Origin: a phage
Strand: one strand, 5' to 3'
DNA length: 52,133 bases
Sequence record: OZ470597.1
Made by a program: the position numbers and the translations under genes. The notes under the pieces were generated by a model. That model did not search any database. It was given only the letters and a program-made list of their open reading frames with translations, and was not told the DNA's origin. Positions 6,337-50,013 of this stretch are shown here, in pieces. Position 1 is the stretch's first letter. Each line of letters begins with the position of its first letter.

Positions 6337-6364
6337 TTGCACGTTTAACAAAAAATGCTATCAT
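6337..6364 (+). promoter_or_regulatory. sigma70-like promoter upstream of major capsid gene (TTGCAC-16-TATCAT), overlapping a reversed copy of the conserved element
   Basis: -35 at 6337-6342, -10 at 6359-6364; conserved element gtttaacaaaaaatgctat at 6343-6361. Confidence 0.4.
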
Positions 6365-10035: not shown

Positions 10036-10040
10036 TCACA

Positions 10041-10063
10041 AGGGGCGTTGCGCCCCTTTTTTT
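10041..10063 (+). terminator. intrinsic terminator after major tail gene
   Basis: AGGGGCG...CGCCCCT hairpin followed by TTTTTTT. Confidence 0.7.
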
Positions 10064-20454: not shown

Positions 20455-20460
20455 TTAAAA

Positions 20461-20485
20461 AGGGGCTTTGGCCCCTTTGTTTTTA
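20461..20485. terminator. bidirectional intrinsic terminator between RBP gene and convergent lipoprotein gene
   Basis: AGGGGC...GCCCCT hairpin flanked by A-run upstream and T-run downstream. Confidence 0.65.
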
Positions 20486-23340: not shown

Positions 23341-23345
23341 TTGAC

Positions 23346-23368
23346 AGGGGCGATTGCGCCCCTTTTTT
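23346..23368 (+). terminator. intrinsic terminator after ERF gene
   Basis: AGGGGCG...CGCCCCT hairpin followed by TTTTTT. Confidence 0.65.
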
Positions 23369-23842: not shown

Positions 23843-23847
23843 TCAAC

Positions 23848-23871
23848 AAAGGGGCATTACGCCCCTTTTTC
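23848..23871. terminator. bidirectional terminator after ssb
   Basis: AGGGGC...GCCCCT hairpin with A-run before and T-run after. Confidence 0.6.
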
Positions 23872-25858: not shown

Positions 25859-27976
25859 TTATTTATTGAGCAGTGCAGCAACAGCCGCCTTTAATTCGTC
25901 TATCTCCTTTTGCTGTTTTTCGATCATTCCTCCCATGTAAACCATAGCGCAAGCCATATCTGTTAGCATAACATTGCTATCTAGCGCCAATGTATCATCA
26001 TTTCTGTCAGTTTCAATCTGGCGATCAATGTATTCCTCGCCATTTTCATCAACCCCGATCACATCTTCAAATACTGGTGAGCCTGGGACAAGTTTCACGT
26101 ATTGCGGATCGATTTTTAACAGGTCTTGAGCTATCAGGCCAAAACGCTGGATGTCAGATCCATTGTATTTAAACATGGTTGGCAACCATTGCATCACGCG
26201 ATCATAGCTTTCCTTTCCGTCCGTGTACTGAATATCGTGCTTCAAATCACGATCAGATGTTGGGTTTTTTGCAAAGTCATAGTTTCCACCCCACGGATCA
26301 TTACCCCAAGAATAAATGTCACCAGACTTACTAAAATTATATGCGCGATGATAACGACCATCACCTAACATGTGAATAGCAACCTGAGGCCAATCAGTAG
26401 TGCCGCCTGAAATAATACCTAAAGACGTTCTCATATAGTAACCACCGTCAGACATAGACCCACCTGACACTATCGGAGACCAGCCGCTGTTATTTCTAGT
26501 AACGGTGTCAGCCCAAAACGGCGTTAACCTGTTATTTGCATCGGCGTCCCAGCCACCCATATAGCAACGACCCATAAAACCACGTGGCGACCTTACATAA
26601 CCGCTAGCCTGAACGTCATTCGGCTCAGGTATGAAGTTAAAATTTATGCCGGAGTATCCTGATTTATTTGGATTAATGTATAACTGTAAATTGTTTAGAT
26701 CCGTTCCTTCGCCCCTAACACCTCCTAACTGCCAGTATCCATCGTGCCAGTAGCCTTGCAGCAAGTTCACCCAGCCACCAGGAGATGAATCGCCAGTAAT
26801 ATTTAAAAGACTTATGTCTTTATTTCCACCGCTAGACGTCCCAACACCTACTCGATTTCCCTGCCCTGCGGTAACATTACCATTTGACTCAATGCCCCCA
26901 AATGCAACGACCTGACCAGTTCCAAGCCCAAAATTATTGCGAGCACCCTCAACAGTAGTTGCACCAGTACCGCCAGTGCTAATTTCAAACGGTTTGGTAT
27001 CATTTCCGTCGCCGGTCTGATATACAAGAAGCCCGTCATTTTTGATCACCAGCCTATATGATTTATTTGGCGAGTAAATAAACGAATGAACACCATCGGT
27101 ATCGTAAGGGGCAACTCGCATGTTCTCGCGAGCAATTTCAAGGTTAGACAGATCTGAAAGGTTCGCATTTTTTCTAAGCAGATTTTCAGCATTAAGGCTT
27201 TTAGCAAATTCTTCAGCCTCATTGCGCGCCATAACAGCGCCGTTTTTTGCAGTTTCAGCGGCGTTATTTGCAGATTGAGCGCCAGTCATGTATTGCTGGG
27301 CTGAATCCCTTGCTGAAATAGCTTCGTTTTTCAGATTAGAAACATCACCCTTTATCTGATTCATTTCTGAAACAGCCTGATCTTTAGTCTGGTTTACAGC
27401 TAAAACACCTTGATCGCGTGCGGAATTAACTTCCGTTATCGCAGAATCTTTAATCTGTTGCGTTTGCGCCTTGATTGCGTCAGTGTCTGCTTTAATCTGG
27501 TTTGTTTCAGCAACAGCAGAATCCTTTATCTGTTGAGTGTCGTTTTTCAGTTGTTCAGTAGCAGCACGATAATCTGCCGTTTTCTCTGCATCGCCTTTAA
27601 CCTGATTAGCCAGATCTTGCAATTGTTTCAGGTCAAAGTTTTTGAAAAATTCAATAGCTTCCTCGATCTGAGTTTCTTTGCTTTGATAGTAACGCAGCGT
27701 TTCAGCAACATCTTGCGCCAGGCCGTCAACAGTTATTGAGTCATGCAGCAAAATAATGTAGTTGCTTCTCCCAATTTCAGCGCCGCCAGTTGTGATTGCG
27801 CGGATTTGTGTATCGCTGATAACTTCACTAATCACAGCCGCTTGAAATGGTGCGTCAATAAAAAAGATTGTTGCGCCAGGACGAATGAGAGTTAGTTGCT
27901 CTCGCCATTTCGTGTCGTATCCAGTGATATAACCTTGAGCGTCCATTGACGCCTGTCCGGTTCTGTAAATTGCCAT
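25859..27976 (-). CDS. lateral tail fiber protein with C-terminal intramolecular chaperone (peptidase S74-like) domain
   Basis: start at ATG 27976 with GGGAG RBS (ORF extends to 28075 in frame); coiled-coil stalk, Gly-rich beta region, C-terminal DRDLKHDIQY...FGLIAQDL chaperone-type domain. Confidence 0.8.
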   Translation of the reverse strand: MAIYRTGQASMDAQGYITGYDTKWREQLTLIRPGATIFFIDAPFQAAVISEVISDTQIRAITTGGAEIGRSNYIILLHDSITVDGLAQDVAETLRYYQSKETQIEEAIEFFKNFDLKQLQDLANQVKGDAEKTADYRAATEQLKNDTQQIKDSAVAETNQIKADTDAIKAQTQQIKDSAITEVNSARDQGVLAVNQTKDQAVSEMNQIKGDVSNLKNEAISARDSAQQYMTGAQSANNAAETAKNGAVMARNEAEEFAKSLNAENLLRKNANLSDLSNLEIARENMRVAPYDTDGVHSFIYSPNKSYRLVIKNDGLLVYQTGDGNDTKPFEISTGGTGATTVEGARNNFGLGTGQVVAFGGIESNGNVTAGQGNRVGVGTSSGGNKDISLLNITGDSSPGGWVNLLQGYWHDGYWQLGGVRGEGTDLNNLQLYINPNKSGYSGINFNFIPEPNDVQASGYVRSPRGFMGRCYMGGWDADANNRLTPFWADTVTRNNSGWSPIVSGGSMSDGGYYMRTSLGIISGGTTDWPQVAIHMLGDGRYHRAYNFSKSGDIYSWGNDPWGGNYDFAKNPTSDRDLKHDIQYTDGKESYDRVMQWLPTMFKYNGSDIQRFGLIAQDLLKIDPQYVKLVPGSPVFEDVIGVDENGEEYIDRQIETDRNDDTLALDSNVMLTDMACAMVYMGGMIEKQQKEIDELKAAVAALLNK

Positions 27977-31665: not shown

Positions 31666-32071
31666 TAAAGGCGATTATCTGGAGTTTTACGAAAGAGATC
31701 CGACAGATACGCTAAAAGAGGAATCGCACCAGATCGGGGCGTTTCAATGGTTGACTTATGCTCATCCTGAATTACTGGCATGGCATACGAAAAACGAGGG
31801 CGACAAGGGGATCGCCACCGCAATGATGGATCAGCAAGCTGGGCTTGTTAAGGGCGTAAGTGATTTTATCATCCTGATTGGATTAAAAGGTCGTTACCCG
31901 TTCGCGGCAATTGAGATGAAGCGCGTCAATAAGTCCGGCAAGGGTAAGGCTTCACCAGTCAGCAAGGACCAAAAAGCCTTCTTGCGTCGTGTGCGTGAGC
32001 TTGGCGGATTCGCTGCCGTAACATACGGATATAAGCAATTCATGATCGCTGTAGAATACATGATGAAATAG
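31652..32071 (+). CDS. VRR-NUC domain nuclease
   Basis: 139 aa; PD-(D/E)XK-type SDFIILI...AAIEMKR motif typical of VRR-NUC. Confidence 0.6.
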   Translation: MAMTDKGDYLEFYERDPTDTLKEESHQIGAFQWLTYAHPELLAWHTKNEGDKGIATAMMDQQAGLVKGVSDFIILIGLKGRYPFAAIEMKRVNKSGKGKASPVSKDQKAFLRRVRELGGFAAVTYGYKQFMIAVEYMMK

Positions 32072-46372: not shown

Positions 46373-46580
46373 GCGCGTTAAGCACAAGTTTATTGATAAT
46401 TATGGAGATGCACTTGAAGTATATAAGTTCGGCGATAGAGTTTTTATTGATGGCACGTTTGAAGGTGGTCGCAGGCCGGATTTTAGGTCGATACTCACCA
46501 TTGACCAGGTGCGCAAGCTGGCGGATAAGTTAAATGATCTGGCAGATGAAATCGAATGCAAGCAAATTCATTTTAATTGA
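46359..46580 (+). CDS. hypothetical protein
   Basis: 73 aa; GAGGTG RBS; overlaps upstream stop. Confidence 0.45.
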   Translation: METNKRVKHKFIDNYGDALEVYKFGDRVFIDGTFEGGRRPDFRSILTIDQVRKLADKLNDLADEIECKQIHFN

Positions 46581-46591
46581 TAGGTTTGATA

Positions 46592-47131
46592 ATGAAAAAA
46601 TACGAATTTGAACTTTGGGGCAGCAAATACCATTTTTCCACGAGCAAGCCGATTGTTATCGTTGACCTGGACGGAACGTTATCAGACGGAACGCATCGCT
46701 TGCACCTGCTTCCGACAGAAGATTTGCACCTTACAGAAAGCTGGTCTGAGTTCAACAAAGCGGCTGTTGGCGATTCTCCGATTAAGAGCACGGTTTCAGT
46801 GGTTAACGGATTGTGGATGTCAGGATTTGCCGTGGTTATCCTGACCGGACGTAGCGATGAAGTGATGGAGGACACCTGCAAATGGCTTAACGAAAACGGC
46901 ATCAAGTACGATGCGTTAATCATGCGCCGCAAGGAAGACAACCGCAAAGACACAATCATCAAAGAAGAAGTCTTGCGCGCTATCGGACTGGAAAACATTG
47001 TGTGCGCTTTTGATGATTCGCCGAACGTGGTTAAGCACTTCCGCAGCCTGGGAATCACAACCTATCAGGTCACGGAATACGACAATCCACATAATCATAT
47101 CCAATCGCATGGCGTGGAGGAATTGAAATGA
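46592..47131 (+). CDS. HAD-superfamily phosphatase (polynucleotide 3'-phosphatase-like)
   Basis: HAD motif I VIVDLDGTL, motif II ILTGRS, motif IV AFDDSPN. Confidence 0.6.
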   Translation: MKKYEFELWGSKYHFSTSKPIVIVDLDGTLSDGTHRLHLLPTEDLHLTESWSEFNKAAVGDSPIKSTVSVVNGLWMSGFAVVILTGRSDEVMEDTCKWLNENGIKYDALIMRRKEDNRKDTIIKEEVLRAIGLENIVCAFDDSPNVVKHFRSLGITTYQVTEYDNPHNHIQSHGVEELK

Positions 47132-49165: not shown

Positions 49166-49429
49166 ATGGTTTTTAATGCACTAAAACGAATCTTTAAACC
49201 TGAATACCGGATCGTTGCTTGCACAGAATGCAAGATTTATTACCTGCAACGCCGCCGCGTTATTAGTGGCGATTGGGAATACCTAACGGATGATGCTTTC
49301 GGCTTTTGGGTTATGGAGTTCAATAGCTACAGTGAAGCGCGTGAGTACGCTAAAAAGTTGCACAAGTTCCGACCTTACAAACTGCGTTTACTGGTTGTTA
49401 AAAAATGCGATGTGTGGGATCACGAATGA
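49166..49429 (+). CDS. hypothetical protein
   Basis: 87 aa; GAGGG RBS. Confidence 0.45.
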   Translation: MVFNALKRIFKPEYRIVACTECKIYYLQRRRVISGDWEYLTDDAFGFWVMEFNSYSEAREYAKKLHKFRPYKLRLLVVKKCDVWDHE

Positions 49430-49554
49430 AAAGAGTAATTATCATTTTTATTGCCGTTATCGCTGGTTGCTACCTGGCTTATAATTATCCGTTATTGCTG
49501 GTTGCTACCTGGCTTATAATTATAGCGGCATTGTTGAGTCAATCGGCGGGTTGA
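49426..49554 (+). CDS. hypothetical small membrane peptide containing a 35-bp tandem repeat
   Basis: 42 aa hydrophobic ORF overlapping upstream stop (ATGA); coding status uncertain. Confidence 0.25.
   Translation: MKRVIIIFIAVIAGCYLAYNYPLLLVATWLIIIAALLSQSAG
49454..49523 (+). repeat. tandem direct repeat, 2 x 35 bp
   Basis: CCGTTAT(C/T)GCTGGTTGCTACCTGGCTTATAATTAT at 49454-49488 and 49489-49523, one mismatch. Confidence 0.85.
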
Positions 49555-49683
49555 TTATCTTCATGGCTGGCGGGTATGCTGGCTATTGTGATGGATTCGA
49601 AAACGGTAAGCGTTACATGCTGACCGAAAAAAAAGAAGTAATGTTAACCGCGCCGCTTCGGTGGCGCTAAAAGGAGGAAGCAA

Positions 49684-49971
49684 ATGGCTAAAAGCTATCG
49701 TAAAATGTTGATTAACGCATTCGAAAAGGCAGCGCTTGAGCGTGGTTGGAATGACTCATTTCACACAGCAAACTGTATCCGCCGTTACGGATTCAAGAAT
49801 TGCCGCTCATGGGCGCGTCAAATGGCTTCATGGTATGATCTTGATGCGCATTACCTTGATATGGATTGCGCGCTGGTTGAAATGATTGAGCAGGCAGCGC
49901 TAGAGGATCGACCATTGACGCAATCTGATTTTGACGATTTTGTTCGCGATGAAATCTATTACATGAGCTAA
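49684..49971 (+). CDS. hypothetical protein
   Basis: 95 aa; AAAGGAGG RBS. Confidence 0.5.
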   Translation: MAKSYRKMLINAFEKAALERGWNDSFHTANCIRRYGFKNCRSWARQMASWYDLDAHYLDMDCALVEMIEQAALEDRPLTQSDFDDFVRDEIYYMS

Positions 49972-50013
49972 TAGCACTTTTTGTTAAAACTTCCGCGAGG
50001 GCATTTGTTAAAG
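49971..50013 (+). promoter_or_regulatory. conserved-element promoter
   Basis: ATAGCACTTTTTGTTAAAAC 49971-49990; extended -10-like TGTTAAAGT 50005-50013. Confidence 0.45.

Follow-up and report, generated by a model that had tools for sequence, protein, structure and literature searches.

Here we report that a small, conserved membrane-protein gene in a T1-like phage sequence of 52,133 nucleotides (OZ470597.1; this whole stretch is called the window below) carries a 35-bp head-to-tail duplication. Judging from related sequences, we consider it probable that this is a spontaneous tandem duplication which arose in the phage lineage and broke an accessory Hanrivervirus gene. We infer that the duplication is present in the phage DNA and not in the assembly alone, that slippage or unequal recombination produced it, and that the phage tolerates losing the gene.

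In the proposed course of events, the duplication would have arisen spontaneously in the gp51-like gene by replication slippage or unequal recombination. Ribosomes starting at the ATG at 49426 would then read copy 1 in frame and copy 2 in a shifted frame, stopping at TGA 49552-49554 to give a 42-aa peptide, and the 3' part of the gene would be left without a start codon. Copy 2 would have gained one transition (C to T at 49496) after the duplication, a run of A residues near the 3' end would have gained one A either before or after it, and the outcome would be an inactivated, decaying gene and no regulatory repeat.

Structure of the repeat

Two 35-bp copies lie head to tail at 49454-49488 and 49489-49523, and direct comparison finds a single mismatch between them, C49461 versus T49496:

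49454-49488, + strand: copy 1 of the 35-bp unit; ancestral C at 49461; read in the gene's original frame, with codons for ..AVIAGCYLAYNY
49489-49523, + strand: copy 2 of the 35-bp unit; derived, private T at 49496; read from the ATG in a shifted frame (PLLLVATWLIII)

The unit, CCGTTAT(C/T)GCTGGTTGCTACCTGGCTTATAATTAT, occurs exactly twice in a repeat search of the whole window. TRF reports 49454-49523 with period 35, 2.0 copies, 97% matches and no indels, and the score of 133 is the highest in the window, the runner-up scoring 70. The repeat extends at neither edge (49453 is G and 49488 is T; 49524 is A and 49489 is C). By chance, about 4e-12 such repeats would be expected in a window. Exact self-matches at lags of 12-60 reach 27 nt here, versus 9-14 nt in 20 shuffles; a chance origin is excluded. 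The initial annotation had described a 35-bp tandem duplication with one mismatch inside a 42-aa hydrophobic ORF (49426-49554), with its copies read in different frames and a TATAAT hexamer in each unit. Coordinates and sequence of the duplication are exact by TRF and direct comparison, translation returns the ORF and the two frames, and the hexamers are present at 49480-49485 and 49515-49520.

Head-to-tail copies of an ancestrally single-copy sequence are what slipped-strand tandem duplication produces. The short direct repeat at the unit boundaries that also belongs to that process is missing: a comparison of the boundaries found no microhomology at the junction, the flanking bases being unlike, and inspection of the sequence near them found one imperfect TTATTGC/TTATCGC pair, out of register.

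Genome setting and the conserved gene

In megablast searches the repeat region and the window's whole second half match, at about 90-96% identity, Hanrivervirus T1-like coliphages (Drexlerviridae, Tempevirinae) such as pSf-1, SFP17, vojen, damhaus and JakobBernoulli. The JakobBernoulli record begins at the small terminase gene (terS) and the window runs collinear with it; because of this collinearity and its length of 52.1 kb it is very probably a complete T1-like genome rotated to a terS start. The features around the duplication are as follows:

49166-49429, + strand: upstream 87-aa gene, homologue of pSf-1 gp50; intact; ends in a TGA that shares bases with the broken gene's ATG (ATGA)
49426-49554, + strand: truncated 42-aa product; residues 1-21 ancestral, residues 22-42 derived from the frameshift; stop TGA 49552-49554
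49524-49670, + strand: orphaned 3' remainder of the gene, read in the ancestral frame (SGIVESIGGLIIFMAGGYAGYCDGFENGKRYMLT...); first possible start TTG 49551
49627-49634, + strand: A8 run, a second private lesion (GA8G at 49626-49635, +1 relative to the relatives)
49639-49641, + strand: ancestral TAA stop, back in frame with ATG 49426 (35+1=36), with two stop codons between
49650-49667, + strand: conserved hairpin GCGCCGC-TTCG-GTGGCGC, located after the broken gene and before the next gene's RBS, outside the duplication
49684-49971, + strand: downstream 95-aa gene, homologue of pSf-1 gp52 (phrog_8758); intact; RBS AAGGAGG at 49671-49677

At the site of the repeat the relatives annotate one CDS of 58-59 codons (pSf-1 gp51, G292_00016, vojen_19 and, in JakobBernoulli, bas07_0082). 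The same gene order, a gp50-like gene, a gp51-like gene with an ATGA start overlap and a gp52-like gene, is common to all relatives and is kept in the window, and the overlap is such that the gp51-like gene appears translationally coupled to its upstream neighbour. Two hydrophobic segments and a basic tail at the C-terminus characterise the encoded protein. Its family forms 17 clusters at 90% identity, confined to the same phage group, and the mean dN/dS over 25 distinct intact nucleotide alleles is about 0.19, which marks a real gene whose intact alleles are under purifying selection. Both the window product repaired to a single copy (E = 4.5e-5) and the intact vojen protein (3.4e-5) match phrog_14912, whose function is listed as unknown in PHROGs; unlike these, the 42-aa product has no PHROG match. 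Pfam searches with the gp51-like protein returned sub-threshold matches only. One family member carries the UniRef label 'Lipoprotein', reflecting an IAG-C motif shared by the window and about half of the alleles. A lipobox (L-[AS]-[GA]-C) has an invariant Cys behind the signal peptide; many intact alleles read IAG-S, so that the lipobox Cys would not be a conserved feature of the family, and conservation of this residue does not appear to support the label.

The hairpin at 49650-49667 keeps its stem in the relatives, with a loop that varies (TTCG, TTAG, TTCT, TCCG). A T-run follows it only in phage BabyEgg, which makes a terminator improbable; it might act in RNA stability or processing. The window's orphaned frame reads through this hairpin because of the extra base in the A-run.

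A different arrangement of the same two genes was seen in two metagenome-derived loci (L023, 720-1157; L026, 717-1157), where the upstream 87-aa gene has one more base in the A-run at its 3' end. This brings both genes into one frame, and a fused product of 145-146 aa that joins the upstream protein to the small membrane protein is called.

The single-copy state in relatives

The initial annotation had proposed looking for single-copy alleles in related genomes, and every relative has one copy. We inspected 32 relatives' loci base by base and measured the 54 full-length blastn matches by their span. A stretch that takes up 301 nt in the window measures 262-266 nt in each of the 54 matches. Between the ATG and the RBS of the following gene, the 32 loci have 204-209 nt where the window has 244 nt, a figure equal to 208 + 35 + 1. 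In four-way and pairwise DNA alignments every relative shows a clean gap of 35 nt exactly opposite the window's second copy. A recent slippage or duplication event, one of the readings first offered for the repeat, is its best interpretation.

Removal of either copy fuses ORFs 49426-49554 and 49551-49670 into one frame, whose product (MKRVIIIFIAVIAGCYLAYNYSGIVESIGGLIIFMAGGYAGYCDGFENGKRYMLT...) is collinear with the relatives' protein and reads MKRVIIIFIAVIAGCYLAYNYSGIVESIGG...GKRYMLT.. whichever copy is deleted. Over the gene's first 100 nt the A16a allele does not differ from the window's single-copy context, and because of this identity it represents the state before the duplication. The intact A16a-type allele is 79-97% identical to the cluster representatives and matches the repaired window product up to the A-run. 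At the one mismatch all aligned relatives carry C where copy 2 has T; copy 1 is thus ancestral at this position, and the T of copy 2 is private, derived and synonymous in the ancestral frame.

Consequences for the product

Since 35 cannot be divided by 3, copy 2 is read out of frame; its translation in the ancestral frame would again be VIAGCYLAYNY. The 42-aa product retains only the first hydrophobic segment of the ancestral protein, and the 3' half to two-thirds of the gene is left without a start codon ahead of TTG 49551. The 42-aa ORF is no gene of its own; it is the truncated 5' part of the conserved 59-aa gene, the rest of which is the overlapping ORF 49551-49670 in another frame. The window lacks the intact frame of 58-59 codons, and its allele is a disrupted, non-functional member of phrog_14912.

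The second lesion lies in the A-run. Most relatives read GGA6G; a metagenomic locus (L024) reads GA7G, which is in frame and changes Gly to Glu; and the window reads GA8G, which is a frameshift. This series suggests that a substitution lengthening the homopolymer preceded the slip. The added A exchanges the C-terminal ..LTGKKK before the stop for ..LTEKKEVMLTAPLRWR, and the orphaned frame runs 10 codons beyond the ancestral stop.

Two ways of rescuing the gene were considered and rejected. The two insertions together amount to 36 nt, which would restore the frame, but two stop codons stand between the lesions; for programmed frameshifting, inspection of the overlap region showed no slippery heptamer.

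Occurrence elsewhere and integrity of the genome

A pattern search for the duplication junction found it absent from IMG/VR, JGI metagenome contigs and GTDB genomes. Exact look-up of the 42-aa and 49-aa products gave no match on record, and a search of the protein collection with the 42-aa product returned no protein carrying the frameshifted tail. Megablast found no near-identical sister genome, the best matches being about 94-96% identical, and contigs sharing the exact downstream protein are just 87-90% identical locally. Among the sequences searched the duplication is a one-off, probably private to one phage lineage.

We took a census of CDS integrity against JakobBernoulli, the pairwise indel listing against pSf-1 having proved uninformative (the pSf-1 annotation has split genes, and its indels cannot be polarised). 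In one frame and at full length are 79 of the 85 CDSs; three are absent and three partial, the latter being the tail fibre, the polynucleotide kinase and the gp51-like gene, which is the sole frameshifted one. The polynucleotide-kinase-like gene (46577-47131) encodes 184 aa versus 237 aa in JakobBernoulli, with a different C-terminus, and the lateral tail fibre (26915-27976) is similar to that of JakobBernoulli over its N-terminal 353 residues only (79% identity). Both differences look like module swaps and not errors.

The gp51-like gene is also broken elsewhere. Shigella phage 2019SD1 has two separate 1-nt deletions in it and a Logan contig from SRR26820257 has one; BEK12B carries an AAA-to-TAA nonsense change, with a truncated product that clusters with that of BEK7; and an ENA protein (P0001) is a frameshifted gp51-like product. 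Protein P0017 belongs to these independently broken cases as well. Some of these breaks may be sequencing errors, and the gene appears either to be lost recurrently or to lie in an error-prone region. Independent breakage in at least four other lineages suggests that the gene is dispensable and that its loss is tolerated.

Mutation, artefact or switch

The alternative that survives best, though we think it unlikely, is an assembly or finishing artefact, in which a 35-nt overlap of contig ends was left untrimmed before the sequence was rotated to terS and the A8 run is a separate homopolymer miscall. T1-like phages have terminally redundant, circularly permuted genomes that assemble as circles. 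Pac-type headful packaging is documented for them (PMC11447400). Collinearity with a terS-first genome implies that the window was probably rotated after assembly, and such editing can create artefacts. The junction without microhomology, unusual for simple slippage, counts against a real duplication and for an artefact, as does the uniqueness of the duplication to the window in every collection searched; one added base in an 8-A homopolymer is a classic sequencing error, and the assembly of a related phage, the Logan contig above, ends right beside the gp51-like gene. The length of 35 is odd, like a de Bruijn k-mer, but to our knowledge it is neither a default nor a usual final k of the familiar assemblers, and an overlap of k-mers is exact by construction, whereas the copies here differ at one base. 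Nor are errors evident elsewhere, the 79 conserved CDSs being free of frameshifts. It would take a coincidence for two unrelated errors to fall in one 180-nt gene, which makes up about 0.35% of the genome, while two frameshifting lesions in the same gene are what real decay of an inactivated gene would be expected to leave. We therefore prefer a mutation in the phage to an error in its sequence.

It is far less credible that the duplication is a functional new allele or a reversible switch, either an OFF state that reverts when the 35-bp copies recombine, with help from Erf/RecE-like recombinases of the phage itself, or an active 42-aa peptide. Besides the first hydrophobic segment, which it retains, the peptide has acquired a second one that is strongly hydrophobic (Kyte-Doolittle maximum of 2.95 over 15 residues), but a frameshifted hydrophobic coding sequence would often remain hydrophobic for compositional reasons. 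Tandem repeats are unstable, the relatives encode exonuclease VIII and an Erf-like annealing protein, and the gp51-like gene is repeatedly broken in other lineages; against this, the window is a single example without conservation, and owing to the second lesion a revertant would lack the ancestral C-terminus. There is accordingly only a slim chance that we are looking at a metastable OFF allele of a gene repeatedly switched off in T1-like phages, from which collapse of the repeat by phage recombination would yield the ON form. If so, the gp51-like gene would be a contingency locus, and the recurrent breaks and the homopolymer variation could be connected with that.

The initial annotation had also raised a duplicated promoter or regulatory site, with the TATAAT in each unit as a -10 element and the pair as a doubled internal promoter or protein-binding site for the downstream genes. 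Two perfect hexamers 35 bp apart are indeed present, and in both copies a scan picks out a weak stem of 5 bp with a T-rich tail behind it, but we give this reading almost no credence and reject it: a consensus scan calls no + strand sigma-70-like promoter at the repeat and no acceptable -35, so that the combination of -35 and -10 with a 16-18 nt spacer, conserved among relatives, is not found there; the hexamer is a codon pair, TAT-AAT (Tyr-Asn), for which about half of the intact alleles have TATGGG, TATGAG or TATGGA, following Asn/Gly/Glu codon changes; the unit lies inside coding sequence under purifying selection and is present twice in no relative; its folding is ordinary (z = -0.5 and -1.6); it has no Rfam match; and the repeated element already known from T1-like phages is another one, an intergenic 21-mer.

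In the window that element recurs at about 15 dispersed intergenic sites as the motif AATAGCACTTTTTGTTAAAAC, in the orientation of the neighbouring genes, and this motif matches the 21-nt repeat aaATAGCACnnnTTGnTAAAA. Direct repeats of this kind are described for TLS, T1, Rtp and Rogue1, and their function is still unknown (PMC11447400). The site nearest to the duplication is 49969-49989; examples of the others are:

+ strand: AATAGCACTTTTTGTTAAAAC motif at 32066, 33086, 44616, 45080, 46067 and 47284
Minus strand: AATAGCACTTTTTGTTAAAAC motif at 6342, 10102, 20769, 38203, 39348, 41891, 42397 and 43273

Also in the window, GC-rich hairpins followed by T-runs (GGGGCG..CGCCCC TTTTT) lie at 10038-10062, 20458-20482, 23344-23368 and 23847-23871; this family looks like a set of intrinsic terminators punctuating the structural and late region.

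Comparison with known systems

Based on these observations, we suggest a single disrupted gene (a pseudogene, or a frameshift awaiting verification) as the annotation for ORFs 49426-49554 and 49551-49670, in place of two new peptides or a promoter. Beyond annotation the importance of the finding is small, with the minor biological point that a small, conserved Hanrivervirus membrane-protein gene appears dispensable.

The closest counterpart of the window allele is the family of pSf-1 gp51, vojen_19 and bas07_0082, with which it shares the position between gp50 and gp52 and the ATGA overlap; without one copy it has 97% nucleotide identity to the A16a and JLBYU09 alleles. It differs from the intact members, of 58-59 aa, in being broken by the added 35 nt and the added A. 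The T1-like 21-nt repeats are the known repeated elements of the same phage group and are present in the window, but they have another sequence and are intergenic, dispersed and conserved across genomes, and the 35-bp unit is none of these.

Untrimmed terminal-overlap duplications in circularised phage assemblies are a known finishing artefact. The present case resembles them in being a short direct tandem repeat, unique to one record, in a circle re-opened elsewhere, and differs from them in its non-identical copies, an unusual k length and a second, independent lesion in the same gene.

Classical work on frameshifts in the rII and lysozyme genes of phage T4 reportedly described tandem duplications of this sort, for which Streisinger's slipped-mispairing model is said to account. 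As in those duplications, tens of bases within coding sequence, their number not divisible by 3, are copied head to tail, the product is truncated, and removal of one copy restores the gene; the differences are that the junction here lacks the microhomology normally required by the simple slippage model and that the event is known from one assembled sequence. The event is an ordinary frameshifting tandem duplication of this long-known kind, and neither a new type of element nor a regulatory repeat.
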